Shown piece by piece: positions 1,478 to 53,399 of a stretch of 64,000 nucleotides of DNA. Under the pieces are notes generated by a model. The model was not told where the DNA came from and did no database searches. It saw nothing but the letters and a program-made list of their open reading frames with translations. This DNA comes from Patescibacteria group bacterium (lineage in GTDB: Bacteria; Patescibacteriota; Microgenomatia; UBA1406): assembly GCA_041665145.1 (NCBI GenBank), contig JBAYJK010000002.1, forward strand, positions 232,339 through 296,338, written 5' to 3'. The first letter of the stretch is position 1. Each line of letters starts with the position of its first letter. The position numbers were made by a program, and so were the translations under genes.

Positions 1478-4107
1478 TACGATCCCTTTACAATAAAATT
1501 AATAATTTTTCCGGGAACATAGATTGTTTTATAGTTACCTGCTACATGTTTTTGTATACTCTCTTGCGCTAAAGCCGCTTGTATTATTGATTTCTCAGTT
1601 ATATCCATAGACTTGGTAACAACCGTACCGCGAAACTTTCCATTAATCTGTACCGCAACTGTAACGTCTGACTTGTTTATCTGTTTAGCGTCAGGAACCG
1701 GGAAGGTTGATAGATGGACACTTCCTGCCATTTTAAGGGTATTGCGCCAGAGATCTTCAGCAATAAATGGGGCAAACGGTGCCAGCAGTTGGACAAAAAC
1801 TGTCGCATGCTGTTTCTGGATCTTTCCACCAAGCTCCCAGACATTCAAAAGTTTCATGAGCGTAGCAATTGCAGTATTAAATTTAACGTTCGTTATATCA
1901 CTCTCAATTTTCGATATCGACATTTGAAGCTCTGAAACAACCTTTACATCCTCATCATCAACAGCATTTGCTATCTTAGCAGGATTATTGAATATCTGAT
2001 AAATTCGCCTCAGAAATCGCGCTGACCCTTGAAGAGCTTGGGTTGACCAGGCAATCTCCATATTGAATGGAGCCATGAACATCTCATAGACCCTGAGTGT
2101 GTCAGCACCATACTCTTTAACAACATCATCAGGGTTAATTACGTTGCCAAGCGATTTGCTCATCTTGCGGTGGTCTGTTGCAAGAACCATACCTACATTG
2201 CGCAGTCTCAAAAAGGGCTCCCTGAAGCCTAAAATACCCAAGTCATTGAGAACATGCACCCAAAACCGCGCATAAAGTAAATGAAGCACAGCATGCTCGG
2301 CACCACCCAGATACCAGTCGACCGGCAACATTTCTGCACCCTTCAATTCGGCTTTCCACTTCTCAACAAGATCACCGGGCGAGGCAACCTCGCCCCTACG
2401 TACTTGCCCGTTTTGTGCAAATTTCAAAAAATACCAACACGACCCTGCCCAGTTGGGCATCGTATCAGTTTCACGACGAGCAGTTGAACCGCATGCCGGG
2501 CATGGGGTCTCGAGCCATTTTTCACCCGCTTGCACGAGGGGCGACTCTCCATTTTCTGTCGGCTCATAGTGACTCATGTATGGCAGCTCCAGTGGCAGTG
2601 TCCCTTCATTGATCGGGTACCAGCCATAGCTCTTCTCTAGAGTACTTTGATCTAGTTTGGTAGTATTTTGATACTTTTTTTGAAAGCTTTTTCCCTCAGC
2701 TGTTGTGAACCACGAATTCTTTTCCGTGGCACACTTTTCGCAATAAACGAGTGGAATCGGTTCTCCCCAATAACGTTGTCGGGAAAAAATCCAATCGCGC
2801 AAATGAAAACTGACCACCCGTTTACCCCAACCCCTTGCTTCCAAGTGATCCATCATTTTGTCTTTAGCTTTCATGATGTCAAGACCGTCGAGAAAATCGG
2901 AATTAATCATAATTCCGGATTCTTCCTGAACTTGTCTGATATCAGTTATTGGAGACGTGTCGGCATCTGACCCCTTAACCACACGCATCACCTCTATCCC
3001 GAATTCTTGCGCAAACTCAAAATCTCGTCGGTCGTGCCCGGGAACACCAACAACTGCTCCCGTTCCGAAATCTCCGAGCACGAAATCTGAAATCCATATG
3101 GGAAGCGGTTTTCCGTTAAGATTATTAACCGCGTAGAAACCCGAAAAAACACCTGTTTTCTTACGACCTTCGGCAATTCTGTCAAGGTCGGTTTTTGATA
3201 GGGCTTTCTGAATATATAAGCTCACTTTTTTATGGATTGCTTCCGTTGTTACCAGTTTTTTTTCAACCACCTTTTTAGCAAAGGGATGTTCGGGTGCTAA
3301 TACGATAAAAGTAGCACCGAAGTTGGTGTCTGGCCTTGTGGTGAAGCACGTGATCTTATCGTCGCTTCCGCGCACCTCATATGCAATATTAATTCCTTCT
3401 TTCTTACCTATCCAATTGCGCTGCATTTCCACTATTCCGTTGGGCCATTGCAGATCTTTAAGGCTATCTAACAAGCTGTTTGCATATGTGGTTATTTTGA
3501 ATATCCATTGCGGAAGATCTCGCTTTGAGATAGTTGAACCGCAACGCTCATGAGTACCATTCGGAAGCACTTCCTCTTCCGCGAGTCCGGTTTTGCAAGT
3601 TGGGCAGAAGTAAACCGAGATCTCTTTTTTAAACAGAAGTCCCAGCTTAAAGAATAATAAGAATAACTCTTGAGTTTTGCCATAGTAGGCCGGATCGGTC
3701 GTTGCAAATTCCTTCTCCCAATCGTAAGACAAACCGAGCATTTGCATTTGACGCTTGAAATTGGCAATATTTGCCGGAACCATATCCATCGGATTCTTTT
3801 TAGCCTTAATTGCTGCGTTTTCTGCCGGCAAGCCAAAGGCATCCCATCCCATCGGATGTAATACAGAGAAACCTTTCATGCGAAAATAGCGTGCCAACAC
3901 ATCTGTGCCCGTATAAATCCGAACGTGGCCTACATGCAGACCAGCGCCAGACGGATAGGGAAACATGGATAAACAGTACATCTTATTCTTATTATTCTTC
4001 AAGTCTAAAGCAGAAGGTCTAAGGTCTGAGGTTTTGTATACACCGTCTTTTTCCCACTGTTCTATCAGCTTCGACTCAAACTCTTGGGGAATATATTTAT
4101 GTTCCAT
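1477..4107 (-). CDS. leuS: leucyl-tRNA synthetase
   Basis: 876-aa ORF with the class I signatures HVGH (HIGH motif) and KMSKS. It has a long CP1/editing insertion and the typical LeuRS N-terminus (PYPSGxLHVGH). Confidence 0.97.
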   Translation of the reverse strand: MEHKYIPQEFESKLIEQWEKDGVYKTSDLRPSALDLKNNKNKMYCLSMFPYPSGAGLHVGHVRIYTGTDVLARYFRMKGFSVLHPMGWDAFGLPAENAAIKAKKNPMDMVPANIANFKRQMQMLGLSYDWEKEFATTDPAYYGKTQELFLLFFKLGLLFKKEISVYFCPTCKTGLAEEEVLPNGTHERCGSTISKRDLPQWIFKITTYANSLLDSLKDLQWPNGIVEMQRNWIGKKEGINIAYEVRGSDDKITCFTTRPDTNFGATFIVLAPEHPFAKKVVEKKLVTTEAIHKKVSLYIQKALSKTDLDRIAEGRKKTGVFSGFYAVNNLNGKPLPIWISDFVLGDFGTGAVVGVPGHDRRDFEFAQEFGIEVMRVVKGSDADTSPITDIRQVQEESGIMINSDFLDGLDIMKAKDKMMDHLEARGWGKRVVSFHLRDWIFSRQRYWGEPIPLVYCEKCATEKNSWFTTAEGKSFQKKYQNTTKLDQSTLEKSYGWYPINEGTLPLELPYMSHYEPTENGESPLVQAGEKWLETPCPACGSTARRETDTMPNWAGSCWYFLKFAQNGQVRRGEVASPGDLVEKWKAELKGAEMLPVDWYLGGAEHAVLHLLYARFWVHVLNDLGILGFREPFLRLRNVGMVLATDHRKMSKSLGNVINPDDVVKEYGADTLRVYEMFMAPFNMEIAWSTQALQGSARFLRRIYQIFNNPAKIANAVDDEDVKVVSELQMSISKIESDITNVKFNTAIATLMKLLNVWELGGKIQKQHATVFVQLLAPFAPFIAEDLWRNTLKMAGSVHLSTFPVPDAKQINKSDVTVAVQINGKFRGTVVTKSMDITEKSIIQAALAQESIQKHVAGNYKTIYVPGKIINFIVKGS

Positions 4108-5474: not shown

Positions 5475-5533
5475 GTCAGTTTGACTATTAACTCTAAACT
5501 ATCAACTCTCAACCCTCAACTATTAACTATCAA

Positions 5534-6295
5534 CTAATACTTAGGTACTGCAATAAAATTAATAACTGTCTGGTAAGTGCCGGTTGCTTGAGCCCCGTCG
5601 ATATTCGCTAGAAATGTAACAGTTGAAATACGGTTTTTCGCGGCTATAGTAGAGGACATGAAGGTAACCGGACTATGTCCGGCTTCACGCGAAGCAAAAG
5701 GACGGTAGTATGTGTTATTTAAAAAATCTGCAGTTACGTCATGTCCTGATGCGTTGTACCCGAATCCCGTCGCAGCAGTTGACGTCCAGACATTCGCACT
5801 GGTTCGAGAACATGCTTGGATCCCTCCGTTACAAGTTGTGTCAGGAATAAAATGTAAGGAAAGCGTCCGGAGAGGATGGTCTTCTATGACTTGGACGTCA
5901 TAGCCACGACTCGGATTAGTAATTGTTACATCTAACGTCGGCAAAGGAGTCGGAAAAGTGTTCGGAATTAATGTCCCGAAATTTATAAGAGTTGATGAAA
6001 TTTCGAATTCAAAAGGCATGGTGGTAAAAATATATTGGAAACCCACTTTTACCACAAATCCCGATGAGGTAAACCGGTCGGCAAATGTTTGTCCGAGTGA
6101 AGTGGTCATGCTGTAATTCGGGGAATCATGCCGACCGCTTCCTATATTAAGGTTGCCGAAAATTATATTATAGTTTGTTGAGTTCATGTTCACCGCATAC
6201 ACTTCAGTTGATAGTTGAGAGTTGAGAGTTAAGAGTAATACGAAGACAATACTTACTCGTATGAGCATGGAGACTAAGTTATTGATTAAATTCAT
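5534..6295 (-). CDS. secreted WxL-domain-like surface protein
   Basis: 253 aa with a signal peptide (…STEVYA). The C-terminal region carries W-containing and terminal motifs (ANVWTSTAATGFGY … GTYQTVINFIAVPKY). These resemble the two WxL-type motifs and parallel the C-terminus of ORF 10409..11854. Confidence 0.45.
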   Translation of the reverse strand: MNLINNLVSMLIRVSIVFVLLLTLNSQLSTEVYAVNMNSTNYNIIFGNLNIGSGRHDSPNYSMTTSLGQTFADRFTSSGFVVKVGFQYIFTTMPFEFEISSTLINFGTLIPNTFPTPLPTLDVTITNPSRGYDVQVIEDHPLRTLSLHFIPDTTCNGGIQACSRTSANVWTSTAATGFGYNASGHDVTADFLNNTYYRPFASREAGHSPVTFMSSTIAAKNRISTVTFLANIDGAQATGTYQTVINFIAVPKY

Positions 6296-6391
6296 GAATT
6301 AAGTATCCGCCCTGCCAACTACTATCTACCATCTACTAACCACTATCAACCATTTACTATCTACTCTAAACTAGAGACTATCAACCCTTAA

Positions 6392-11876: not shown

Positions 11877-12905
11877 ATGAGAATATTAGGTAGCATAGCA
11901 AAAAATGTAGCTAAATTAGCCCTATATTCCTATATTCCTATATTCCTATATTCTTTTGTATCTACTGTACATGCTCAAGCAAATTTTTCCATAACCGCGT
12001 TTCCGGCAATAATCGATCAGAGAGTCGAGCCCAATCAACAAACACGGCTACTTGTTCAATTCAAGAATAATTCTGATAAAACAATTATCGGATCAGTAAA
12101 GGTGGCGAACTACACTATCAAGAACAAAGAAGGCGATATTATGTTGGTCGATGATCCGAACGTTAAGCTGAAATATGCAGCCGCATCATGGATAACTCCC
12201 GATGTTGATCAGATTGCAATACCAGCCAATAACTATGTAGCGGTCAATCTCACGGTGAAAACACCCGCAGAACTTAATACCTGTGGGAACTATGCAATCG
12301 CCTATTTCGAATACGATCAAGGACTCCAACCCGGCGCATCGGCTATTACACAATCATCTTCAACACTTGCCGCAAAGATTGGATCGCTTATAAACTTAAG
12401 CACAGTAAGTAAGAGTTGCGTTGAGAAAGTTACTGTTTCGAGCTTTAAGTATCCGGGTTTTCTTGAATTCGGTCCGGTAAAAGTTGACTTTGATCTTTTG
12501 AATTCGGGAAATGTACACGCACAGCCTATGGGAAAACTTGTATTGAGAGATATGCTGAATAATGTTGTTGAAGAAGTGAAACTAAAGGATCAACGCATAT
12601 TCCCGGAGACAGCCAAAGCATATTCAGGCAAGATCGGACCCCAATGGCTATTGGGTCGTTTTGCCATCGAATTGAAAGCCGTATACGGAGAGAATAACAC
12701 CCCACTTACACATACCGCTTACTTATGGATAATCCCATGGCGGCTTGTTGTCGTAGTGCTTCTCGCGCTCTTGATAGTTGCAATAATACTGAGGAGTATA
12801 TTCGGCAAAGTTGTACATCGTGAAGAAGAGCTGGAAACTAAGCTCAAAGAGGAAGAAAAAGAGATTGATGAGCTCAAGAAAATACTTCGTGGAAAAAAAG
12901 AGTAA
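11877..12905 (+). CDS. secreted surface protein with C-terminal membrane anchor, DUF916/DUF3324-like architecture
   Basis: 342 aa. It has a signal peptide (…VSTVHA), a DUF916-like N-domain (FSITAFPAIIDQRVEPNQ…FKNNSDK…AASWITPD), a C-terminal TM (LVVVVLLALLIVAIIL) and a charged coiled tail. Confidence 0.5.
   Translation: MRILGSIAKNVAKLALYSYIPIFLYSFVSTVHAQANFSITAFPAIIDQRVEPNQQTRLLVQFKNNSDKTIIGSVKVANYTIKNKEGDIMLVDDPNVKLKYAAASWITPDVDQIAIPANNYVAVNLTVKTPAELNTCGNYAIAYFEYDQGLQPGASAITQSSSTLAAKIGSLINLSTVSKSCVEKVTVSSFKYPGFLEFGPVKVDFDLLNSGNVHAQPMGKLVLRDMLNNVVEEVKLKDQRIFPETAKAYSGKIGPQWLLGRFAIELKAVYGENNTPLTHTAYLWIIPWRLVVVVLLALLIVAIILRSIFGKVVHREEELETKLKEEEKEIDELKKILRGKKE
11921..11952 (+). repeat. octamer tandem repeat CCTATATT x4 in signal-peptide codons
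   Basis: Four perfect copies at 11921-11952 encode LYSYIPIFLYS within the signal peptide of ORF 11877..12905. Confidence 0.95.
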
Positions 12906-31200: not shown

Positions 31201-33469
31201 CAGTTATTCCGCCGACCCTATTCGAATCGGCAGGCTTGCGTATTGCTGCACAACTAATCATGATTTGACCGGCTCTGTCGACGAAGTCAAAATCTATGAT
31301 TATGCGCGTTCGTCGAAACAGATAATCGAAGATATGAATGCTGGCCATCCCGCCGGCGGGTCCCCTGTCGGGAGTCAAGCCCTATATTGGAAGCTCGATG
31401 AAGGGATAGATGATACTGCCCATAGCTCCGGTGCGACAACGGTTGATGGTACGCTTACTTGTACGGGAGGAACGTGTACAAATCCCACATGGACCAATAA
31501 CGGAAAATTCGGCAAAGCCGTGACTTTTTCTTCTTCAGGAACTGATCGGGCATACATTACTGCAGCCACAGTCAGCCCAGTGAATTTACCTGTCGCAGTA
31601 GGATCAAAAATAACTATTTCGACGTGGATGAATCCTCTCGCAACACAATCAGGTGGGGGTTGGTATGTACGTAATGGGACCGGTGTAGATGAAAACTATG
31701 CGCTACACCTATCTAATTCACCCACAAACGGGAATTACCCTGTCAGTATGGAATACTATGACGGAACATGGAGAAGTATCAGCACAACCGGTCAACATGT
31801 TCCCCAGGCAGTTTGGTCGCACGTTACGGTAGTATTGTCTCAGGGACAGTGGATGAAAGTATATGTGAATGGTGTGTTCAAAGAACAGGTTACCTGGGTT
31901 GGCTCACCTTCCGTACTTTCAACGTCGTCATTCAACATCGGTGGTCATGCAGGAACAACCGGTCAGTATTTTAACGGATCGCTCGACGAATTTAAGGTGT
32001 ATGGAACAGAGTTGACTGCCGACGAAATTAAACTGGATTATAACCGCGGGCAGACTATGGTTTTAGGCTCTGCATCAGTTAATTCTTCTGGTGTTGTCGA
32101 CAATTCTTCAGCCGGACAATACTGTGTGCCAGGAGACGCAACTTCCTGCCTTGGTCCTGTTGGTGAGTGGAATTTTGAGGAAGGTTCGGGAACAACGGCG
32201 AATGATTCCAGCGAAAATGACAATGTCGGCAATTTCACCAGTTCGCCGGTTCCTTCGTGGACAATTGGAAAAATAGGTAAATCTTTGCGATACAATACGG
32301 GGGGATACCTCTCGGTCACCGATGCCGCTCCCCTCCAGACAACTGCGGCAGTTACCCTTGAGGCCTGGGTGAATTTTGCCAACATTACGAGTTTTATGGG
32401 AATTACGGGTAAAGAGAAAACAGGAACGCCGGGAGCGCTGGCATATGGGATGCGAATGAATAATGTCGGAACCGTATTTGGCGACTTTTACATAAGTGGC
32501 GTACGCAAGACTTTCGGCACATTTACCGCTGCACCAAATACATGGTATCACGTGACCGTAACGTTTGACGGGACTAACTTGGCGCTTTACAAAAACGGCC
32601 AACTCTCCGGCAGTGTAATGAATGCTCCCGGAACAATTGATTCTACGGTTGGCGTACCGTTACTCATCGGAAGAGACGGCGGGTATGGTTCATTTACCGG
32701 CCATATTGATCAAGTTCGCATATTTAACTACGCCCGTACTCCTGCACAAATTGCTTGGGATTACAATCAGGGTAAACCAGCCGTTCAATGGAAATTCGAC
32801 GAATGCCAAGGTACTACGGCAAATGATTCGAGCGGAAACGGAAATACAGGAACCATCACGATCGGTGCAACAGTCCCTCAGTCTTCTGCCGGAACATGCA
32901 CGGATGGATTGGGAACTTCTGCGTGGAATAACGGTGCAACAGGAAAATATAATTCAAGTTTGCGGTTTGACGGCGTGGATGATTATATGTCAAAACCTAT
33001 GACCGTCTCTGCTTCAAATGGAACCATTTCATTCTGGATTAAAGATTTTGCGATCGGGGTGGGCACGTATCTCTTCAGATCAGATGCAAATGTCCGTACC
33101 TATATCGGAGCAAACAGCAGTACGATTTACTTTTTCAAAGGCAATCCGGCAGTCGTAGTTCCCACTACCCCTGCCCTCACGGTAGGCAGTTGGAACCATA
33201 TCGTATTACGGTGGTGGACAACGGGAGGGGTGCAGTATGCAGAAGCTTATGCGAACGGAAAATCTACAGGGGCTCCCGTAACGTTTCTCGACTCAACCGT
33301 CGGCACATATGTTACCGTCGGCGGATTCGGACCGACAGGTACGCAAAATGCCGCAGGACAGTTTGATGATATACAAGTGTTTAACTACGCGCTGACCACG
33401 CAACAAATAAAGAATCTGTATAACCAAAATTCCGCAATACGTTTTGGTCCAGCAAGTGGAATGCCGTAG
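28226..33469 (+). CDS. 1747-aa membrane-anchored DUF2341 + 6x LamG (concanavalin A-like lectin) repeat protein
   Basis: N-terminal TM (FLLVLILFIATTLIYV) followed by a DUF2341-like start (WQYRQTFTATN…GNDIRIV…IWFEATIPANTSAVYYIYYGN). Six modules follow. Each opens with (V/G)YWKFDEGTG-type motifs and closes with IDE(V/A)(K/R)(I/V)Y…A..(Q/E)I motifs. Confidence 0.85.
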   Translation: MKALKKARVQFLLVLILFIATTLIYVKLQPKKSAEAAWYNDSWQYRQTFTATNGSAYSATNVPYRLIFDTASPIAANKMLASGNDIRIVNSKGAVVRFQVEQSTLNTTQTGIWFEATIPANTSAVYYIYYGNNQASAPSFTSDVSTVSGSGTTVEMKDGSGYTTSTNGGQVSDIRKNGTNLGVNGNAHHTTSYPGNWWDDRPFTQTLLASGPLFVEVKYTDSTYGSYSDFGTNIKMFKNNFAEVRVYMTYNTAGSEQLYYYLNFDNGTRNSVWVNGSEVVVDQAPDSGGLTQASLGDSWFGQRWTGTGVYGGTIIRKNNSDWTSGFTSAQSSYYQTNYSNNSAYTNGSSREIRYGIFAGDGGLSEMTQKGSSYGDQTTTINGSEEKSVAPVAYWKFDEGTGGNAHDSTANKNDGTTGGTWTNEDQCINGKCLYFNGTDVSVPDTNSTLDLTSKMSFSFWWRPMSQHTGYAYQLLSKWSTTTDANLAFYFFGDYNGTLPANKGLMRIYATAGGTWKVISGSYFVTDADLGKWMHVSFNYDTATGGQLYINGSPVGVRTGSGDLTTNNLPFRIGGYIPKAYFDEVKIYGYERTATQIKTDYQLRGSSKSTSVAMGSSKSNNDAFSNGLVGYWKMDENTGTTVADTSGNGGTMTFTGNAPSWVVGKYGSAIRYNGTNSLATVPNSTPLNITGNAITLSAWVYLTAYPASYGVIYQKDGYADGYRMMIASTGQIYSDMKASERSMSSTGTVPLNTWTLVNVTYDGAKMYTYINGASAGSLSVTPGNLTGTTASISFGLTEYPPITGSIDEARVYNRALSASEVSSLYNFAPGPVGYWNFDAKTGATVADLSGNNNVGAFIDSPSWTVGKYGGGLKLDGSNDGIQIAQSNSMKPAKKFTVSAWINIPSYRAAGEYGPIIEGAGNLNSWTGYYLGFDTSANLWFYAGNGTAWTNTSTPQASIPLNSWHYVTGVVDDSTISIYVDGILKSTSAHTLTAISYSADPIRIGRLAYCCTTNHDLTGSVDEVKIYDYARSSKQIIEDMNAGHPAGGSPVGSQALYWKLDEGIDDTAHSSGATTVDGTLTCTGGTCTNPTWTNNGKFGKAVTFSSSGTDRAYITAATVSPVNLPVAVGSKITISTWMNPLATQSGGGWYVRNGTGVDENYALHLSNSPTNGNYPVSMEYYDGTWRSISTTGQHVPQAVWSHVTVVLSQGQWMKVYVNGVFKEQVTWVGSPSVLSTSSFNIGGHAGTTGQYFNGSLDEFKVYGTELTADEIKLDYNRGQTMVLGSASVNSSGVVDNSSAGQYCVPGDATSCLGPVGEWNFEEGSGTTANDSSENDNVGNFTSSPVPSWTIGKIGKSLRYNTGGYLSVTDAAPLQTTAAVTLEAWVNFANITSFMGITGKEKTGTPGALAYGMRMNNVGTVFGDFYISGVRKTFGTFTAAPNTWYHVTVTFDGTNLALYKNGQLSGSVMNAPGTIDSTVGVPLLIGRDGGYGSFTGHIDQVRIFNYARTPAQIAWDYNQGKPAVQWKFDECQGTTANDSSGNGNTGTITIGATVPQSSAGTCTDGLGTSAWNNGATGKYNSSLRFDGVDDYMSKPMTVSASNGTISFWIKDFAIGVGTYLFRSDANVRTYIGANSSTIYFFKGNPAVVVPTTPALTVGSWNHIVLRWWTTGGVQYAEAYANGKSTGAPVTFLDSTVGTYVTVGGFGPTGTQNAAGQFDDIQVFNYALTTQQIKNLYNQNSAIRFGPASGMP

Positions 33470-33472
33470 TTT

Positions 33473-33500
33473 GTAAGGGCGCGGCGTGACGCGCCCGTCT
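33473..33500. repeat. REP-like hairpin R1 just after the LamG stop
   Basis: GTAA-GGGCGCG-gcgtga-CGCGCCC-GTCT, a 7-bp GC stem with a 6-nt loop. It lies 4 nt after the stop at 33469 and upstream of the rayT-like ATG at 33510. Confidence 0.6.
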
Positions 33501-33509
33501 TGCACAAAT

Positions 33510-34163
33510 ATGCATAACCGTCAATCAATCAGATTGAAAAATTACGATTATTCGCAATCAGGTTTGTATTTTATAACCATATGCACACAAAACAGAGAAA
33601 ATATATTTGGCAACATTGTAGGGGCGGACCCACGTGTCCGCCCGATATCAAACCCATGTGTCCGCCCAATATTAAAACCTGTCCGCCCAACATCAAATGC
33701 ACACATCGACACAATACGTATGACATTAAATAAATACGGGAATATTGTTGAAAAATGGTTAAATAAAATTCCTCATAAATTCCATGTTGTTATGGATAAA
33801 TGCCAAATTATGCCCAATCATATTCATATGATAATCAATATTATTTCTGACGATGGTTTGATCCAGAATTTATATTCAGGGCAGACACAAGGGTCTGCCC
33901 CTACATCAACGCCACCCACAACAATCGGCACAATAATCCAATGGTTCAAAACCATGGTAACGAATGAATATATCCAAAATGTACATAATAAGAATTGGAA
34001 ACCATTTGAAGGACGGTTGTTTCAACGCAATTATTATGAACACATTATCCGTTCTGATAATGATTTATGCAAAACACGCGAATACATCATGAATAATCCT
34101 GCCTTATGGTACCGTGATCGAAATAATCCAGAAAAAACAAACAACAATATTCTGTTACAATAA
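33510..34163 (+). CDS. IS200/IS605-family Y1 HUH transposase-like protein, RayT (REP-associated tyrosine transposase) type
   Basis: N-terminus RLKNYDYSQSGLYFITICTQNRENIFG, the HUH motif as HIHMI, and a catalytic-Tyr region QRNYYEHIIRSDNDL…YIMNNPALW. I prefer the ATG at 33510 to the track's GTG at 33486. No terminal inverted repeats or tnpB partner were seen. Confidence 0.8.
   Translation: MHNRQSIRLKNYDYSQSGLYFITICTQNRENIFGNIVGADPRVRPISNPCVRPILKPVRPTSNAHIDTIRMTLNKYGNIVEKWLNKIPHKFHVVMDKCQIMPNHIHMIINIISDDGLIQNLYSGQTQGSAPTSTPPTTIGTIIQWFKTMVTNEYIQNVHNKNWKPFEGRLFQRNYYEHIIRSDNDLCKTREYIMNNPALWYRDRNNPEKTNNNILLQ
33618..33690 (+). repeat. REP-like hairpin R2 plus two extra tandem half-sites, translated inside rayT
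   Basis: GTAG-GGGCGGAC-ccacgt-GTCCGCCC (33618-33643). GTGTCCGCCC recurs at 33658-33667 and GTCCGCCC at 33681-33688, about 23 nt apart. The region encodes VGADPRVRPISNPCVRPILKPVRP. Confidence 0.7.
33879..33904 (-). repeat. REP-like hairpin R3 translated inside rayT
   Basis: GGGCAGAC-acaagg-GTCTGCCC-CTAC, which puts GTAG on the minus strand. It encodes GQTQGSAPT. Confidence 0.65.
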
Positions 34164-34167
34164 AAAT

Positions 34168-34518
34168 ATGCAGAATATAAAAGTCATGCTCCTTTCAGCA
34201 GTAACTGTTTTTTTCCTGCTTTTTGCCATATCTGCAAAACCTGTAACTCTTGCCGTCCCCGGTCAGCTTATTTACGATGTCAATACACCCGCTATTGATA
34301 ACTCGCTCTGCAACGAGACAATCGCAAACTGCAAAAAAGAAACTGAAGCAACGTATTCACTTTATAACACCTGCGTGAGCCAAAAAGCCCAAACTGAAAA
34401 AATCAATACATTACTTGGGTTGCTTCTCGGCGCTGTTATACTAGCCTTGCTACTTATCACCGGAATAGCCCTGTTTGTTCTGAGAAAAAGACCTGCACCT
34501 CAACAAACTACGTCTTGA
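34168..34518 (+). CDS. small type-I membrane protein (signal peptide, Cys-containing ectodomain, C-terminal TM)
   Basis: MQNIKVMLLSAVTVFFLLFAISA leader, 3 Cys in the ectodomain, then the TM LLGLLLGAVILALLLITGIALFVL followed by RKR. I prefer the start at 34168 to the track start at 34114, which overlaps rayT. Confidence 0.55.
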   Translation: MQNIKVMLLSAVTVFFLLFAISAKPVTLAVPGQLIYDVNTPAIDNSLCNETIANCKKETEATYSLYNTCVSQKAQTEKINTLLGLLLGAVILALLLITGIALFVLRKRPAPQQTTS

Positions 34519-41506: not shown

Positions 41507-42812
41507 GAGCAACAGCAAAAGCCCCTTCTTTCATGTTTATTTTGAGGGTTTTTGATTTGTTCCATACCGCCTCAAACGCCAGTTGGAGTTGTCTTTCGAG
41601 CTTATCATTCACTTCTTTCTCGCTCCACCAATAACCGGCAAGACCCTGCACCCATTCAAAGTATGAAACAGTCACTCCCCCGCTGTTTGCCAGAATATCG
41701 GGGACGACAATAATTCCCATTTTATCGAGAATCGGATATGCGTCTTCTGCAATAGGACCGTTTGCCATTTCGATAATAATTTTCGCTTTGATTTTTCCGG
41801 CGTTTTCAGCAGTTATGACGTTCTCAAGCGCGGCAGGCACCAATATGTCTACCGGAAGTTCCAAAAGTTCTTCCTGACTAACTGTCCTCCCGTATTTGAT
41901 GTCGCAGACGGTGCCCTTGCAATAACACCCGGCAACACTTCCTTTTTTCTTTTTACAATCAAGTGTTGAGGCAACGCTCAGACCTTCTTTAACATAGACA
42001 CCTCCCTTGGAGTCAGATACGGCAACTACGGAAAAACCTTCTTCTTCGGCAATTTTGGCAAAATAGTAGCCGACATTACCGAATCCCTGGACCGCAATCG
42101 ATGGCGATTGCGGAATCTCGAATCTCGAATCTCGAATCTCGAAATTTCCTTTTTTTTGGGATTTTGTATTTGTTTCGGATTTCGGATTTCGGATTTCGGA
42201 TTTTAACTTTGAAAGTAACGCTTTCAAGACCATTACGCCGCCGCGTCCGGTTGCTTCGGTTCTTCCCAAGGATCCACCAAGCGCCACCGGCTTACCGGTG
42301 AATGTAGCGGGACTTTTTGCTCCCACGGCTTTTTCGTATTCATCGAGCATCCACAGCATTATCTGACCGTTGGTATTTACATCCGGTGCCGGGACATCCG
42401 TCCACGGTCCTATATATGAAGCGATTGCCCGTCCATAGGTGCGGGACAGAGATTCCAATTCTTCAACCGTCAATTCTTTGGGGTCAACAATAATCCCGCC
42501 TTTAGCACCTCCATAGGGCAATCCAGCAACTGCGCATTTTAAGCTCATGAGTGTGGAAAGCGCCATCACCTCTTCACGGCTTACATTCTGATGAAATCGA
42601 ATTCCACCTTTGTACGGTCCGAGCGTATTGCTATGTTGGCTTCGAAATCCTTGAAACGTTTTGATTGTGCCGTTTTTCATCTTAACGGGAAGCTTTACCT
42701 CAATAACCCGGTCAGGCTGCACGAGTTTTTCGGTAAGATCTTCCGCAAGACCGATTTTTTTGGCAGTTTTTCTAATAAGACCCTGAGCCGTTTCAAGCAT
42801 TTGATTGGACAT
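41481..42812 (-). CDS. gdh: glutamate dehydrogenase with ~27-aa in-frame insertion
   Basis: Catalytic region PYGGAKGGIIVDP and the Rossmann motif QGFGNVG. The insertion KSEIRNPKSETNTKSQKKGNFEIRDSRFEIPQS lies immediately N-terminal to QGFGNVG. Confidence 0.93.
   Translation of the reverse strand: MSNQMLETAQGLIRKTAKKIGLAEDLTEKLVQPDRVIEVKLPVKMKNGTIKTFQGFRSQHSNTLGPYKGGIRFHQNVSREEVMALSTLMSLKCAVAGLPYGGAKGGIIVDPKELTVEELESLSRTYGRAIASYIGPWTDVPAPDVNTNGQIMLWMLDEYEKAVGAKSPATFTGKPVALGGSLGRTEATGRGGVMVLKALLSKLKSEIRNPKSETNTKSQKKGNFEIRDSRFEIPQSPSIAVQGFGNVGYYFAKIAEEEGFSVVAVSDSKGGVYVKEGLSVASTLDCKKKKGSVAGCYCKGTVCDIKYGRTVSQEELLELPVDILVPAALENVITAENAGKIKAKIIIEMANGPIAEDAYPILDKMGIIVVPDILANSGGVTVSYFEWVQGLAGYWWSEKEVNDKLERQLQLAFEAVWNKSKTLKINMKEGAFAVALTRIAGLQ
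42113..42210 (-). repeat. ~98-nt imperfect-palindromic element inserted in frame in gdh
   Basis: 4x GAATCTC (42113-42140), a 32-nt spacer, then 4x TTTCGGA (42173-42200) and ttttaacttt. It is homologous along its whole length to 43251-43352 in trxB. Confidence 0.85.
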
Positions 42813-42836
42813 AAACTAAATTAAACTACTAATAAT

Positions 42837-42960
42837 AAGTTGTAACTTGTAAGTTGCAAGTTGTATTAAAGTCGTAATGATTAAGTTGTAAGTTTTAACC
42901 AGTCGTTTCAACTTACAACTTCAAGCTTTATTACAACTTACACCTTACGACTTTCAACTT
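42837..42960. repeat. ~124-nt intercistronic palindromic repeat, copy A (trxB-gdh spacer)
   Basis: Words AAGTTGTAA/TTACAACTT form two imperfect arms. It is about 93% identical (9 differences by eye) to 43997-44119. Its last 23 nt supply the trxB C-terminal codons EVESRKV and the stop. Confidence 0.85.
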
Positions 42961-43996: not shown

Positions 43997-44119
43997 AAGT
44001 TATAACTTGTAAGTCGTAAGTTGTATTAAAGTCGTAATAATTAAGTTGTAGTTTTAATCAGCTGTTTCAACTTACAACTTCAAACTTTATTACAACTTAC
44101 ACCTTACGACTTTCAACTT
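43997..44119. repeat. ~123-nt intercistronic palindromic repeat, copy B (csoR-like-trxB spacer)
   Basis: Direct repeat of 42837-42960. It starts 7 nt after the trxB ATG position and ends at the stop of the CsoR-like gene. Confidence 0.85.
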
Positions 44120-44363
44120 ATATTCGTGATATTTCTTTTAACACTGCTTCCAATTTTTCCTTATGCTCAGGCATAAGATTACACACCTCGCCTTTTGCAA
44201 TTTCAAGTCCTAAATTATTGACCGCCGCTTTTATGGCACCTATCTGGAGCAATACAGCAGTACAATCACGCTTGCCTTCAAGCATTTTTTGAATACCTTT
44301 TAACTGTCCGATGATCTTATTTATCCGTTGAATATGTATAGTGCTCTCATTTAAATCTTTCAT
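44118..44363 (-). CDS. CsoR/RcnR/FrmR-family (DUF156) metal- or thiol-responsive repressor
   Basis: 81 aa with the family pattern IQRINKIIGQLKGIQKMLEGKRDCTAVLLQIGAIKAAV. There are only two Cys (C34, C61) and no His at the usual Cu(I) ligand spacing. Confidence 0.75.
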   Translation of the reverse strand: MKDLNESTIHIQRINKIIGQLKGIQKMLEGKRDCTAVLLQIGAIKAAVNNLGLEIAKGEVCNLMPEHKEKLEAVLKEISRI

Positions 44364-46190: not shown

Positions 46191-46266
46191 ATTTAAGCTT
46201 AAATATTAAAGCTTAAAGATTAATTGAAGCCTAAACCTTAAAGCTTGAAGTTTCCTTGTTGCTTTG
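46191..46266. terminator. AAGCTT-word palindromic spacer between convergent rho and the SpoU gene
   Basis: tttaagcttaaa (46193-46204) is a perfect 12-nt palindrome. Further TTAAAGCTT words follow, with AAGCTT cores at 46196, 46210 and 46242. Confidence 0.4.
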
Positions 46267-46839
46267 CTATTTGTCCTCTAAGCTTAGAGTTCTCCGTATT
46301 TCATAGAGTGCTATTCCCGTGGATACAACCACATTGAGGGATTTGTTGATACCGTACATCGGAAGTTCGACAACAATGTCCGCAAGCTCTATCACCTCTT
46401 GCTTGACACCAAAGGTTTCATTGCCGGATATCAATGCGATATTTTGTTGTACGGGCAAGGCATGCCTTGCCCCTACGTTCCCCATTCTCATCCCTAATTC
46501 ATCAATTGAAATCGATTTCTCGTTCTGTTCCAGCACAATAATCGTATAACCTTCGACTTTCAGACTTTTGACAAGTGCCAGAATGTCTTGTTTGTATTCC
46601 CACGGAATATAGTTCACCAGCCCGACCGAGGCACGGACTATTTTCGGATCAGGCGGTACGGGAGTTTGTCCGCAATGATAGACTTTGGTCACCCCCGCCG
46701 CATCGGAAACCCGATACATACCACCCACATTGAATGTGTCGTACACATCGTCAAGAATGAGTATAAAATTACCGTTTTCTTTTGGAGTGCTCGGACTTTT
46801 TTGTATGTCCCCTTTTCTGAGAGATCGTGCAAACGCCAT
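46267..46839 (-). CDS. SpoU/TrmH-family RNA 2'-O-methyltransferase carrying an in-frame REP hairpin
   Basis: Motifs LILDDVYDTFNVGGMYRVSDAAGV and LISGNETFGV…ELPMYGINKSLNVVVSTGIALYE. The insertion reads MGNVGARHALPVQQN. Confidence 0.88.
   Translation of the reverse strand: MAFARSLRKGDIQKSPSTPKENGNFILILDDVYDTFNVGGMYRVSDAAGVTKVYHCGQTPVPPDPKIVRASVGLVNYIPWEYKQDILALVKSLKVEGYTIIVLEQNEKSISIDELGMRMGNVGARHALPVQQNIALISGNETFGVKQEVIELADIVVELPMYGINKSLNVVVSTGIALYEIRRTLSLEDK
46449..46476 (-). repeat. REP-like hairpin R4 inside the SpoU methyltransferase gene
   Basis: GTAC-GGGCAAGGCATGCCTTGCCC-CTAC, with a perfect 20-nt palindrome at 46453-46472. The minus strand reads GTAGGGGCAAGGCATGCCTTGCCCGTAC and encodes VGARHALPV. 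Confidence 0.8.
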
Positions 46840-47401: not shown

Positions 47402-50400
47402 TCACGACTGGTTCTTCGAATCATCCATCTTCATTTCCTGCACCGGGAGCTCTGCTGTTACCGCCGGTTCTTTAGCTGTCGCCGGCAATTCTACATACTC
47501 GATTGCTTTTTCTTCAAGCATTTTCTTGAGTTCTTCCTCTTTCAAGAGGGCTTCACTTACTTCCTGAGCAGCTGCAAGCTTGGCTTTCAAGTACATGGCA
47601 ATGTCCTGAATAGTCATATCGGTCAACATAAAGAACGGAATAATATCGGAGACGGCAGTAAGTCCTTGCGCTTTAATTTCTTCGTTTGCTGACACGAGCT
47701 TGTTCAAGACGTTGGTGAGTATTACCGCATCCCGTTGTACCCAGACAATGCGAGAAGTTATTTCTTTGGTAAATGGTACTTCTCCATTTGTATAGTGTTC
47801 TATCCACATGCGTTTGAGCTCTTCATATTCGTCAATACCCATAGTTTTGGGTGTCGCGATCATTTTTCCAGAATCAAGTATTTTTGACCTCAAATTCACT
47901 CCCTTATCGAGCGGTTTCTTTCCGCGATCGGCCAGCGCAGCCGGTCGAAGTGCTTGTTGCACGAGCTGTTGTGTTTCCTTAACAGTTGTTTTCTCATTAG
48001 TTTTCTCTGTAAGCTTCTCCAGCATTCTTTCAACAGTTTCTTTAGTGGTTTCTGTTGCTTTTACGAGCGTTGAGATTACGTTTGCCGGCTGCTGTGTTGT
48101 GACGACCTGTGGAATTTTTTGTATAACCGCCTGTATAACATCCGCTTTCATTCCCGATGCTTGTGCAATGCTTTCCACAGCCACCTGGTCCACGGCAACG
48201 GCGGCAAGAGCCGATTGTAATGTTTGCACCAGTCCTTCGGGCTTCTGGTGCGTTTCTGCAGCTATGGACTGCAAGGTGGTTACCCCCGCCGCTTCGGTGA
48301 GCGTTGAATTTACTTTTTCAATTACATCCTTCACTATATCTGTTGTTGTGTTTTGAGATGTCGCAATACCGGTAAGAACTTCTTTGGAAAGTGCGCTTTC
48401 CGTTATTTTTTTAACAACTTGGGTAACCGTTTCTTTTTCTATATTGGTCTTCTCGGAAAGCACAGTCAGCATGTCTCGGGGTGTTGTTGTCGCACTGACC
48501 TCTGATAATGTCGTAAGAATACGTGCAACATCCGGTGTCGAGACATGTGTGATCTCAGACACTCTGGACAACAGTTGTTGATCGTTAGAGACACCCGTTG
48601 TCCATAGGTCCAGAATTTTTTGCACGTTGGAAACGGTAGATTTGGTTTCGGTTGAAACTGCGTCTGTCGTATTCATCAGCGACAATTCCTGATGAGATAA
48701 CTGTTGGATTTTTTCCTGGACAGCCTCGGTTGACTTATTGACCAATTGCTTATATTCCTGTGCAGACTGAGTGTTGGATTGCTCAGCCTTAACGATTGTT
48801 GTTTGTGCGCGGGCAATATCTGAAAGCTTTTGAATTTGGATATCCATGCGTTTCAAAATACTTTCGAATTCCTGCCTGTTGATGCCTTGATTTATAACAA
48901 CGGTTTTTGCTGACATGCCTGCAAATGACGAAACGTCAGCGGGCGAAGTAACTTCGCCCCTACTTGTGTTTTCATTGAATTGCGATTCTTGACTCGCGAC
49001 TCGCGACTCGCGACTCTTGGTCTGGACGTCTTCGATTTCCTGTTCGAGTTGCATTGTTTGCTCTTTAACCCCCTCGGCTTGCTGTTCTACATCCACAAAC
49101 TGTTCCTCGACTTTGTTACCCATTGCCTGCTGAACTTCTTCAACCGCCCCCATCTTGTTCTGGATTTCTTGTGCAGCAGAAACCTTCGCCTTCAAATATG
49201 CTGCGATATCCTGCATACTCATATTACCGAGCATGAAGAATGGAATAACATCGGCAACTTCTTGCAATCCTTCGGCACGAACTTCTTCGTTATCGGAAAT
49301 GAGCTTGTTAAGCGTATTGTTTAACGAGACCACATCTTTCTCAACCCAATCTTTACGCGTTTTAATTGTGTCACTGAGTGGTATCTCTCCCTTTTCATAA
49401 TGGTCGGTCCACATCTTCTTAACTTCCTCGTATTCATCTATCGACATTGTCTGTGGCCGAGCGATAAGCTCTGCGGGAGCGCTTACTTTCTGTGTAGCCG
49501 GCTTAGACAGCACTTCTTGTGCCACTTTCTTGACCTGATCGATATTGGTTTTTGTTTGCGATGCAATTCGTTCTGCTACCGCTGTTGTCTGTACATGCTC
49601 GGCAGCTTTTGTAAGAATTGTTGTTGCTTTGTCTGTAGTGATTCCTGCCGTTTGTGCTACCGATTTGATAACCTCCGACTGCTTCGACTCCTCGACCGCT
49701 TTCGGTATTGATTGCAACACTTGTGACGTTTGAGAATCCGAAACATGTGCATTATTGGCAATGTTGTTAACAACCTTCTTGTCACCTACAACGTCGTTTA
49801 CCATGGATTGCGTGATGTTTTTGACCTCGTTCTGGGATATGTTCACGTGTTGTGAAATATTCTGAATATTCGTTACCGTTTGTGCCTTATTCTGGGCAAA
49901 TTGCTGAATCGCCTGACGCACGCTTGTTGCCGTACTTGTTGTCGCATTGAGGAATTGTTGTGCATTCACATCACCCTTAACTGCCCGTTCGGACATTTCG
50001 GTCTTCAGTTTAATAAATTGAGACCGTTCTTCCTTACTTTCAGCTGCCATCGGATTGCGCATCTTTTCCATAAACTCACGCACGTATTCTTTTCGGTCTG
50101 TCTTTGTTTCAAACCGGGCAATATCCGAAAGCTTTTCGATCTGGACATCCATACGCCGAGTAATCTCGGACACATCCATTTGTTTCATATTTTGCATGTT
50201 TTCGATTGCCGATGTGGCACGCATACCTTGTGAGACTGCCTGCTCGTGCGGTATCTGCATTTTCTGTGAGAAGGATTGTTTTGGAATATTCGCAGGTCCT
50301 ATCGGTCCCGGTGTTGGTCCGTGACTCTGTTGTTCCAACATGTTTAAGAGTATGTTTTTCATGGCGTAAATACCTTCGCAACAATAATCTCTGAATATTC

Positions 50401-51596: not shown

Positions 51597-53399
51597 TTAC
51601 ATTCTTTCGACAGTCCGGATTCCCAAAAGATACAAGCCATTTTTGAGAACTTGTGAGACTGCTTGAGTAAGATTTATACGAAGTTCCATTTGCTCCCCAC
51701 TTAATATGGAATGTTTGTTGTAAAACGTATTAAACGTCTGGGCAAGTTCGTTTAAATATACCGCAACAAAATGAGGGTCATAACTCTTTGTCGCTGTTTC
51801 AACAACTTCAGGAAATTTGGCAAGAGCTTTAAGGATAGCGAGTTCTTCGTTGTTGTATTCGTATGCATGTGTCGCGGGTCTCGCGTCTTGGGTCTCGCGT
51901 CTTGGTTCCTTAGACTCGTGACTCGTGACTCGTGACTCAGGACTCTTTCTTAACACACTCTTACATCGTGCGTAGGTATATTGCAAATACGGACCAGAAT
52001 CTCCGCTCATTGAAACGCTTGAGGTAATATCAAATGCTAAGTATTTAAATGCACTCATTTTAAGAAACGAATACTTGACTGCTGCTAATGCGATCGCATC
52101 AACATCACTTTCTGGTAAAACTGATTTATTCTCCACAATTACCTTGGCAATTGCTTTGTGTGCTTCATCGAGAATCAACTCTGCTGTAACCACCTGACCT
52201 TTTCGTGAAGACATTTTCCCGCTTTTCAAACCGACAAACTCATATGCGTTGTGGTATTGCTTTCCCTTGAACAATTCCGGGTTCAAAAGCTCTTCAACTT
52301 TGAAGGTTACCTCGAAAAAACTTTTTTGCTCTACCGCGACGTTATGAACACACAAATCTATGTGGCCAAAGTCTTTAAACTCCATTTGTGCAAGACCAAG
52401 TTCTTTACCCTCGTACGTCGGCAGCCCTTCACTGTTAAGAAAAACCCTCGTATCGAGTTTATACGGCTCGCCGTTAAAAATAATCGCTCCCTTACTTTTG
52501 ACAAGAATTCCTTTTTTAATAGCTTCTTCGTTTTGTACTTTGGCAACTTCCAATGTTTCGCTTTCAAGATATTCCCGCTCGAAATGACTATCAAGACGAT
52601 CATAAATTTGGTGAAACTTTTCCAAACTCCACTTTACTCCGAGCTTCCACAATTCATGAACCTCTCCTTCCTTTTCCGTATATATCTTCTTGTTAACTTC
52701 GATGATTTCTTTTTTATTTTCCTCACTTTCTTCAAAGGCTTTTGCCCCCTCAACATAACATTCGGATAATAATTTGACACGTGCATCGGGCGAATCAAGA
52801 TTCGCCCCTACAACGTCCCCGTTTCGAATTTCGAATTTCGAATTTCGAATTTTCTTTTGCAACGCCCACACACATTTGGCAACATGCATTCCAACGTCAC
52901 CCTGGTAGTTCGTCCGTATGACTGTGGCTCCCGATGCCTCTAGAAGTCTGGCAATGGACACTCCTAAACAAAAATTTCTCAAATGTCCAATATGCATGAC
53001 TTTAAACGGGTTCGGATGCCCGTATTCGACCATAATTTTCTTATTCTTCAGCTCGGAATTCTGCCCATAGTTATCATTCTGAGCAAGAACCTCCTGTACA
53101 ACCTTGCTGTACGCTTCAGGCTTCAGGAAGAAATTTATGTATCCCGGCTTTGCTACCTCCACTCGAGCTACATGAAGGGTTGAACCCTTCATGCCATTAG
53201 AAAAAGATAGGTTTAGCTTGTCAACAAGAGCTGCAGCGAGTTGCATTGGATTCGTCTTGACGTGACGGGCTAAAATCATGGCAATATTCGTCGAATAATC
53301 TCCGTGAGCAACTTCAGGAGACACAAAGACCTCTATTAAAGAATGAAATTCTGCATCAACAACCTGTTTTAATAGATCAATTATCTGCTGTTTGAACAT
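51597..53399 (-). CDS. argS: arginyl-tRNA synthetase with three in-frame repeat insertions
   Basis: 600 aa with the HIGH motif as MHIGH and the KMSKS-equivalent GKMSSRKG. The N-terminal Arg_tRNA_synt_N-like region and a C-terminal DALR-like anticodon-binding region ending in M are present. Confidence 0.94.
   Translation of the reverse strand: MFKQQIIDLLKQVVDAEFHSLIEVFVSPEVAHGDYSTNIAMILARHVKTNPMQLAAALVDKLNLSFSNGMKGSTLHVARVEVAKPGYINFFLKPEAYSKVVQEVLAQNDNYGQNSELKNKKIMVEYGHPNPFKVMHIGHLRNFCLGVSIARLLEASGATVIRTNYQGDVGMHVAKCVWALQKKIRNSKFEIRNGDVVGANLDSPDARVKLLSECYVEGAKAFEESEENKKEIIEVNKKIYTEKEGEVHELWKLGVKWSLEKFHQIYDRLDSHFEREYLESETLEVAKVQNEEAIKKGILVKSKGAIIFNGEPYKLDTRVFLNSEGLPTYEGKELGLAQMEFKDFGHIDLCVHNVAVEQKSFFEVTFKVEELLNPELFKGKQYHNAYEFVGLKSGKMSSRKGQVVTAELILDEAHKAIAKVIVENKSVLPESDVDAIALAAVKYSFLKMSAFKYLAFDITSSVSMSGDSGPYLQYTYARCKSVLRKSPESRVTSHESKEPRRETQDARPATHAYEYNNEELAILKALAKFPEVVETATKSYDPHFVAVYLNELAQTFNTFYNKHSILSGEQMELRINLTQAVSQVLKNGLYLLGIRTVERM
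51877..51946 (-). repeat. tandem arrays inside argS: 14-mer x2 + heptamer x5
   Basis: GTCTCGCGTCTTGG at 51877-51890 and 51891-51904. GACTCGT x3 (51912-51932) is followed by GACTCAG and GACTCTT. The region encodes KSPESRVTSHESKEPRRETQDARP. Confidence 0.85.
52788..52811 (-). repeat. REP-like hairpin R5 inside argS
   Basis: GGGCGAATC-aa-GATTCGCCC-CTAC. The minus strand reads GTAGGGGCGAATCTTGATTCGCCC and encodes VGANLDSP. Confidence 0.8.
52822..52849 (-). repeat. heptamer array TTTCGAA x4 inside argS
   Basis: Four perfect copies, one substitution away from the TTTCGGA arrays in gdh and trxB. It encodes IRNSKFEIRN and lies 10 nt from REP R5. Confidence 0.85.

Follow-up and report, generated by a model that had tools for sequence, protein, structure and literature searches.

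A REP-associated transposase gene in a Patescibacteria genome that carries its probable GTAG hairpin substrates in frame

Among the REP-associated tyrosine transposases (RAYTs, or TnpA_REP), named for repetitive extragenic palindromes (REPs), subclass 2.4 is described as unique in carrying in-frame REPs inside the tnpA_REP gene itself (Quentin, Siguier, Chandler, Fichant 2018, PMC6006769). It is the RAYT group 4 of Bertels et al. 2017 (PMC5581495), and its members share the motifs NH[IFV]H, WQ and YIxNNP, a median length of 194 aa and a highly variable insertion between strand beta3 and helix alphaC (PMC6006769). Here we describe a gene, called RayT below, that probably belongs to this subclass and that holds two GTAG-footed hairpins within its reading frame. 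It lies in a 64,000-nucleotide stretch of a Patescibacteria (Microgenomates-like) metagenome-assembled genome (MAG; assembly GCA_041665145.1, contig JBAYJK010000002.1, positions 232,339 to 296,338), the whole of which we refer to as the window.

Three other systems serve for comparison. One is the E. coli TnpA_REP/REP-BIME (bacterial interspersed mosaic element) system, for which Ton-Hoang 2012 and Messing 2012 are reportedly the sources. Its enzyme (RAYT group 2, 4ER8; Corneloup 2021, PMC8266576) contacts the GTAG through W94, Q95, E100, H101 and R104 (PMC6006769). Another is the set of GTAG REPs found wholly within open reading frames (ORFs), including those of tRNA synthetases, which has been compared with the Rickettsia palindromic elements (RPEs) (Di Nocera, De Gregorio, Rocco 2013, PMC3733652). 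The third comprises the TnpA enzymes of the IS200/IS605 family (IS608, ISDra2), whose single-stranded DNA (ssDNA) hairpins carry a 5' guide tetranucleotide and are used strand-specifically on the lagging-strand template. Those hairpins form the subterminal ends on either side of a gene that they mobilise, whereas the hairpins of the window lie within the gene and are dispersed, with no sign of the RayT gene itself moving.

The enzyme gene and its diagnostic features are as follows.

33510-34163, plus strand: tnpA_REP/RAYT gene, 217 aa, with its ATG at 33510 (the mechanically called ORF starts at a GTG at 33486)
33816-33827, plus strand: HUH motif NHIH (N103-H104-I105-H106), which fits the NH[IFV]H of subclass 2.4 (PMC6006769)
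34020-34052, plus strand: FQRNYYEHIIR block, placed by profile alignment to 4ER8 residues 90-122
34083-34085, plus strand: codon of the predicted catalytic Y192, in REYIMNNP, an instance of YIxNNP

An earlier, sequence-only reading of this DNA had called the ORF (33486/33510-34163; protein start MHNRQSIRLKNYDYSQSGLYFITICTQNRENIFGNIVGADPRVRP...) an HUH/Y1 enzyme of the REP-associated kind, to be given up if the protein lacked similarity to a Y1 profile. The protein matches Y1_Tnp (PF01797) at 28.6 bits against a gathering score of 23 (E 1.7e-6; Pfam), and a 36-member family profile matches E. coli TnpA_REP 4ER8 at E 2e-5. It is only through this profile that the sequence similarity to the E. 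coli enzyme is seen; a single-sequence search of the PDB sequences gave PINK1 hits that we rejected as spurious. The AlphaFold2 (AF2) model has a predicted local distance difference test score (pLDDT) of 80 overall and above 90 in the core, and its top 30 Foldseek matches in the PDB are all IS608, ISDra2 or IS200 TnpA or 4ER8, each with a probability of 1.0. There are more than 7900 homologs, several of which the Joint Genome Institute (JGI) names "REP element-mobilizing transposase RayT". Pfam, profile and model thus agree with the original call.

The HUH motif was correctly placed at residues 103-106; in our family alignment, A1, M101, P102, N103 and H104 never vary and H106 hardly does. The tyrosine motif had been sought in RNYYEH, which has to be revised: RNYYEH falls in the GTAG-recognition block, where FQRNYYEHIIR aligns with W94, Q95, E100, H101 and R104 of the E. 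coli enzyme (the W being F here), and the catalytic tyrosine is Y192, invariant in A1 and the counterpart of Y115 in 4ER8. Equivalents of Q95, E100, H101, R104 and Y115 are kept, and the Y1/HUH fold and catalytic residues are intact. The public JGI call for this gene (P0001, 33720-34163) is a 147-aa protein that begins at Met71 and lacks beta1 and the region of the first in-gene hairpin. Because homologs align from residue 1, the 217-aa ORF is, judged by these alignments, the real gene.

With NHIH, YIMNNP, a length in the class of ~194-217 aa and a variable beta3-alphaC insertion made of short DNA repeats that keep the frame, the protein resembles subclass 2.4, and so does its gene in holding in-frame GTAG REPs. 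The "double-foot" and inverted-pair REP types and the scattered occurrence over many phyla are shared as well. Homologs of the same architecture come from Cyanobacteria, Bacteroidota and Chloroflexota, as published for the subclass. We consider it likely that the ORF is a single-copy REP-associated tyrosine transposase of TnpA_REP subclass 2.4/RAYT group 4. It differs from the described members in having FQ instead of WQ, in 24-nt half-site expansions, and in a sense REP that occupies a second site instead of standing beside the antisense one, with ~235 nt, including the HUH codons, between them; most of its dispersed REPs are also intragenic. Its host belongs to a group not named in the two surveys (PMC6006769, PMC5581495), and our literature search found no paper tying RAYTs or REPs to the candidate phyla radiation (CPR)/Patescibacteria. 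The E. coli enzyme shares the monomer-type Y1/HUH fold, a 5' GTAG beside a hairpin as recognition element and a single-copy gene with REPs nearby; its REPs, in contrast, are longer, bulged, extragenic and outside the gene. The sequence-only reading had presented substrates that are translated parts of the enzyme's own gene as out of the ordinary. The arrangement is there, but it is a published hallmark of subclass 2.4 (PMC6006769): what we report is a re-discovery of in-gene REPs, and the Patescibacteria membership is what is new.

The hairpins in and beside the gene are these.

33473-33496, plus strand: R1, hairpin with a GTAA foot (33473-33476), 7-bp stem and 6-nt loop
33618-33643, plus strand: R2, GTAG REP in sense orientation, 8-bp stem, 6-nt loop, frame 0, encoding VGADPRVRP
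33628-33697, plus strand: tandem array of 3 diverged 24-nt copies (Tandem Repeats Finder), repeating the R2 loop, 3' arm and spacer
33879-33904, minus strand: R3, GTAG REP in antisense orientation, 8-bp stem, 6-nt loop, read as GQTQGSAPT

R2, with the sequence GTAGGGGCGGAC-CCACGT-GTCCGCCC, lies at the tip of the beta-hairpin that follows beta1. This position, which we call site A, is also filled in loci L001, L003, L046, L077, L084, L085 and L086. As first described, R2 encodes VGADPRVRP and is followed by two more GTCCGCCC half-sites (33660-33667 and 33681-33688), spaced 24 and 21 nt, which yield VRP three times; counterpart 24-nt expansions occur in loci L084 and L085 and in proteins P0018, P0077 and P0118. 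R3 was also read correctly, with its GTAG on the minus strand. It covers residues 124-132, between the HUH/beta3 strand and helix alphaC (139-161), at site B, the usual place of in-gene REPs among homologs. R2 and R3 form an inverted pair with their feet outward. Both segments are insertions relative to 4ER8 in the profile alignment and are coil in the AF2 model (residues 38-69 around R2, pLDDT ~54-64; residues 112-138 around R3, pLDDT ~49-64), which answers the check proposed with the original call. The model therefore predicts that the hairpin-coded segments are translated as disordered surface loops.

R1 had been counted as a third GTAG hairpin. The hairpin is present (33477-33496, GGGCGCG/GCGTGA/CGCGCCC; -10.2 kcal/mol, z -2.7) in the 40-nt spacer between the stop of the upstream laminin G (LamG) protein and the RayT start, but its foot is GTAA; the nearest GTAG (33466-33469) overlaps the upstream TAG stop, 7 nt off the stem. 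Because no T-run follows it, R1 is not a canonical terminator.

The main evidence that these hairpins belong with the enzyme comes from 80 homologous loci, scanned in one genome per species, from Omnitrophota, Chloroflexota, Bacteroidota, Patescibacteria, Desulfobacterota, Planctomycetota, Cyanobacteria and other phyla. At least one perfect GTAG hairpin was found within the gene at 55 of the 80 loci (90 hairpins), at a density of 1.8/kb in the gene versus 0.15/kb in the flanks, a 12-fold difference. When in-gene GTAGGG sites were collected with no hairpin required, a perfect 8-bp stem followed 89 of 123 and at least 7 of 8 pairs followed 108 of 123. Over 63 distinct 26-mers, 98.8% of cells were paired, compared with 26-58% in slid controls, and both-side changes were seen in 78 cells versus 18.8 in shuffles (0/500 reached the observed value), on statistics uncorrected for phylogeny and 26-mers that were mildly pre-selected (>=5 of 8 pairs). 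The commonest architecture has a sense copy directly after the HUH strand and an antisense copy 40-140 nt later, feet outward; where both orientations occur, the sense copy is nearly always ahead of the antisense one. Antisense in-gene copies occur in all three frames.

The in-gene copies are also tied to their surroundings. A copy with at most one mismatch was found within a few hundred nucleotides of the same gene for 20 of 50 in-gene hairpins, versus 3.0 expected from other loci; L065, L080 and L045 provide examples of such near-identical flanking copies. On this ground, the in-gene copies belong to the same concertedly evolving REP family as the flanking ones. The association of GTAG hairpins with the RayT gene family is tight and specific, and it is their structure that is conserved. 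The hairpins that the window carries in housekeeping genes resemble a second class, with short loops and a "double foot" (e.g. GTAGGGGCGAGGCATGCCTCGCCCCTAC in L047 and L002). We also observed in-frame GTAG hairpins in long ORFs adjoining RayT (L084:545-570; L067:1816-1841 and 3253-3278; L080:9420-9445 and 12473-12498) in genomes of Patescibacteria, Saccharibacteria and Omnitrophota, for example encoding VGVDPRVDP upstream of the L084 RayT.

Within the window, hairpins of the form GTAG (or GTAA)-GGGC-N3/4-loop-N3/4'-GCCC occur as seven perfect copies: two in frame in RayT, one just upstream, and four in other genes.

2377-2399, minus strand: GTAG REP in the leucyl-tRNA synthetase (LeuRS) gene, sense, frame 1, RRGEVASP
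46453-46476, minus strand: GTAG REP in a SpoU/TrmH methyltransferase gene, sense, frame 0, VGARHALP
48941-48963, minus strand: GTAG REP in a 1357-aa membrane-protein ORF, sense, frame 1, SRGEVTSP
52788-52811, minus strand: GTAG REP in the arginyl-tRNA synthetase (ArgRS) gene, sense, frame 0, VGANLDSP

The sister hairpins in argS and the SpoU gene had been recognised from the sequence; those in LeuRS and the 1357-aa ORF are additional. The window has 7 perfect GGGC...GCCC hairpins whose stem reaches 7 bp or more, versus 0.04 expected from Markov-1 shuffles, and GTAGGGGC was found 6 times versus 0.58 expected, with 0/100 shuffles reaching 6. As ssDNA, all window hairpins fold at -8.7 to -10.8 kcal/mol (z -2.7 to -4.6). 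Their inner stem pairs vary from copy to copy, and every stem is fully complementary. The SpoU hairpin falls within a region gapped against solved TrmH structures, the ArgRS hairpin within a 14-residue excess over human ArgRS 4ZAJ, and the LeuRS hairpin within a hypervariable loop. This LeuRS loop (2330-2450, CWYFLKF to PVDWYLGGAEH) holds from 0 to >50 extra residues across Microgenomates LeuRS and looks like a place where small insertions collect in general.

An eighth copy is found 23 nt past the stop of ndk (L081:11980-12005), ~0.7 kb outside the left end of the window in the same genome. It reads GTAGGGGCGAACCGAAAGGTTCGCCCC and then ATTTTTT, and looks like an intrinsic terminator made from a REP. 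Thus, in the ~74 kb scanned (the window plus a 10-kb leftward extension), there are 8 copies, 6 of them intragenic; together with the 55 of 80 homologous loci that hold the same element, this answers the concern, raised with the original call, that the hairpins might form no family. Six of the seven window hairpins have, as described for GTAG REPs, a GTAG or GTGG that precedes, by 0-2 nt on the 5' side, a stem of 7 bp or more that is paired throughout and G+C-rich at its base (PMC6006769, PMC3733652), and R1, with GTAA, does not; the 6-nt loops of R2 and R3 slightly exceed the 2-5 nt given for short hairpins (PMC6006769). At gathering thresholds, the hairpins match no Rfam family.

Like the intragenic GTAG REPs and the RPEs, these are short in-frame palindromes in functional genes (tRNA synthetases, RNA-modification enzymes) that encode short extra peptide segments in tolerant regions. 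RPEs are roughly 100-150 bp in size; we rejected RPE membership for the window elements, which are 23-26 nt GTAG hairpins. RPE-1 is longer (PMC3733652) and unrelated in sequence; what the two kinds share is function alone. In the genomes of the earlier survey (PMC3733652) most copies were extragenic and a minority intragenic, in contrast to 6 intragenic copies of 8 here. In all five dispersed copies the GTAG is on the minus strand, which is G-rich and for that reason probably has the sequence of the lagging-strand template. This pattern fits the strand bias of IS200/IS605, but the minus strand also carries the five host genes, which confounds the comparison, and the number is small.

Comparison with relatives indicates how these copies have changed. 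The closest LeuRS relatives of the MAG are in Candidatus Roizmanbacteria. Its RayT has its nearest homologs at L084 and at L085 and L086, the last two from Daviesbacteria; all three share the variant architecture of the window gene, in which site A holds a sense REP with 24-nt half-site expansions and site B an antisense one. Which of the stem types GGGCGGAC and GGGTCGAC occupies which site differs from genome to genome, and this swapping favours replacement or turnover over slow point mutation. In L083, whose LeuRS is 78% identical, the syntenic 8-kb region has no GTAG hairpin in LeuRS or after ndk. Its LeuRS loop is of equal length and different sequence, with a 21-nt-spaced direct repeat AAGGATCACG, and a different, unrelated terminator hairpin lacking GTAG follows ndk. 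Because the hairpins are absent at both places in so close a relative, the housekeeping-gene copies appear from the sequence comparison to be young and lineage-specific, same-foot REPs having recently entered variable loops and a terminator position. The L083 loop, with its same length and other sequence, led us to reject a clean insertion in LeuRS; the event was either a replacement within a hypervariable loop or two independent events.

We therefore favour, as the likely explanation, that the GTAG-footed, G+C-rich 8-bp hairpins are the cognate REPs of RayT and that the enzyme copies them. By analogy with E. coli TnpA_REP and IS608, RayT would bind the folded hairpin on ssDNA, probably on the lagging-strand template, and would read the 5' GTAG through its Q/E/H/R block; the HUH-bound metal and Y192 would then cleave nearby to form a 5'-phosphotyrosine link, and joining of the strand elsewhere would copy or replace REPs. 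The two loops of the RayT gene may act as permissive hot spots whose REPs turn over jointly with the local ones, and copies would survive only if in frame and free of stops. A sense copy can be read in two frames, since frame 2 would contain the stop TAG, and most surviving REPs would be intragenic because most landing sites in a gene-dense Patescibacteria genome are coding.

Several points, besides the limits on the covariation statistics, weigh against this explanation or the assignment on which it builds. The NCBIfam model REP_Tyr_transpos (NF047646) matches at 59.1 bits (E 4e-16), below its curated 80-bit cut-off and over the C-terminal half of the protein only, and we dropped filing under that equivalog. 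The Trp of the conserved WQ motif is Phe in RayT and in its closest relatives (P0002, P0005, P0011, P0013, P0019, P0043 and P0093), whereas most A1 members have WQ; the role of this Trp has been called unclear (PMC6006769). The copy count rests on ~74 kb of genome. The hairpins in housekeeping genes have loops of 3-4 nt, compared with 6 nt in the in-gene pair, and a different inner stem, and could be another REP class or belong to another, unseen enzyme. Sense in-gene hairpins across the loci are in frame 0 rather than frame 1 by 54:5, which fits inheritance or selection better than repeated random insertion. Finally, as no group 4/2.4 enzyme has been assayed biochemically (PMC8266576), cleavage of the window hairpins by RayT is something we infer.

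The frame bias also bears on the idea that the in-gene pair is a selected cis-element, not merely tolerated: either a master copy, a protected REP that could travel with the gene and seed new genomes, or a self-recognition site (operator) through which the enzyme could sense or limit its own gene by ssDNA binding and cleavage or by stalling of transcription or translation. Such selection would explain why two loops, a fixed order and outward feet recur across phyla, why sense copies are nearly always in frame 0, why pairing is maintained by compensatory changes and why the gene is so much denser in hairpins than its flanks; moreover, G:T wobbles lie on the GTAG strand even in antisense copies, which indicates a DNA-strand feature. 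On the other hand, about a quarter to a third of homologs do without perfect in-gene hairpins (25 of 80 loci; 18 architectures empty), there is free variation in how many copies a gene holds, how far apart they lie and how the tandem half-sites are expanded, close relatives have stem types swapped between the sites, and the match between in-gene and flanking copies is what turnover of a REP population predicts with no special function. Frame bias and positional conservation lean slightly towards selection, an idea compatible with REP copying and not exclusive of it; nevertheless, we regard it as rather unlikely. An extension that we consider doubtful is that the in-gene inverted pair keeps enzyme and substrate together and re-seeds REPs, with the REPs of gene-dense Patescibacteria almost wholly in coding genes and reshaping the loops of essential enzymes.

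Less probable still is that the hairpins act mainly at the level of RNA or transcription, as terminators, attenuators or mRNA-stabilising structures, and that the link to a Y1 enzyme is incidental. REPs are known to terminate transcription and to stabilise mRNA (PMC6006769, PMC3733652), the ndk copy has the G+C stem and T-run of an intrinsic terminator, and the four housekeeping-gene copies are all sense and hence in mRNA. Yet the genic copies have no T-run, a terminator inside an essential gene would do harm, R3 is antisense, as are roughly half of the in-gene copies, no Rfam family matches, and neither the invariant GTAG foot nor the 12-fold enrichment in RayT genes would be explained; an enzyme-independent RNA role fits the ndk copy only. 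That VGADPRVRP and GQTQGSAPT are conserved protein motifs with DNA palindromy as a by-product can be set aside: similar peptides do stand at the same places in many homologs, but one DNA element read in different frames and orientations gives unrelated peptides (VGADLRVCP, GRTHGSAPT, GEHIGSPLH, GSTRGSTP, RRGEVASP), which excludes this reading, and substitutions keep base pairing rather than amino acids, the segments are predicted to be disordered, and the element also occurs in non-coding DNA.

The setting of the gene had been described as an adhesin locus, a fair if loose label for a RayT flanked by large surface proteins: upstream a 1747-aa protein with six Laminin_G_3 domains and DUF2341, downstream a 737-aa protein with a C-terminal Peptidase_S74 domain. 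The setting is not conserved in relatives; the gene ahead of RayT in L084 has no relation to the LamG protein. The stop codon of RayT and the beginning of the following ORF, for a small membrane protein, are bracketed by an 8-bp inverted repeat rich in A+T, ATATTCTG (34147-34154) and CAGAATAT (34171-34178). The two Daviesbacteria loci (L085:888-1502, L086:10001-10561) are syntenic, with RayT tightly packed between class-Ib aminoacyl-tRNA synthetase and tRNA_bind/FtsH genes, and this shared position suggests vertical, housekeeping-like inheritance there. The FtsH of L086 contains an intein with a LAGLIDADG domain.

Separately, we noted that tandem arrays of period 7 are strikingly over-represented, with a unit particular to each array; almost all intergenic spacers of the window hold them, and they also lie within ORFs (for example at 126-183, 5484-5536, 6319-6365, 42113-42143, 42173-42203, 42836-42898, 44068-44120, 46195-46250, 48991-49016, 51913-51938 and 52822-52852). 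In the window plus 86 loci (1.14 Mb, mostly RayT-2.4 neighbourhoods), arrays of at least 3 copies numbered 121 for period 7 and 25, 20 and 16 for periods 8, 9 and 6. Two unrelated genes, the 1357-aa ORF (48982-49019) and ArgRS (51871-51938), share the nearly identical unit GACTCGC/GACTCGT, which yields the similar peptides ESRVASQES and ESRVTSHES. The arrays recall the short tandemly repeated repetitive (STRR) heptamers of cyanobacteria, and a literature search on heptamer repeats found nothing relevant. A local link between the arrays and the GTAG hairpins was rejected, as the two lie no closer together than expected by chance; period-7 arrays are absent from L083, the relative free of hairpins.

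Taken together, the locus offers a clean example of a mobile-element enzyme whose coding sequence holds its own probable DNA substrates. The numbers from the 80 loci describe in-gene hairpins that are conserved in position, kept paired by compensation and concerted with flanking REPs. In-gene hairpins also account for a class of odd Pro/Gly/Cys/Arg-rich peptides in metagenomic proteins, and the corrected gene call restores a first beta-strand that the JGI start at Met71 drops. The added value is incremental, in that the in-gene REP phenomenon is extended to Patescibacteria, where in a gene-dense genome the probable substrates also colonise the loops of essential proteins such as LeuRS and ArgRS.

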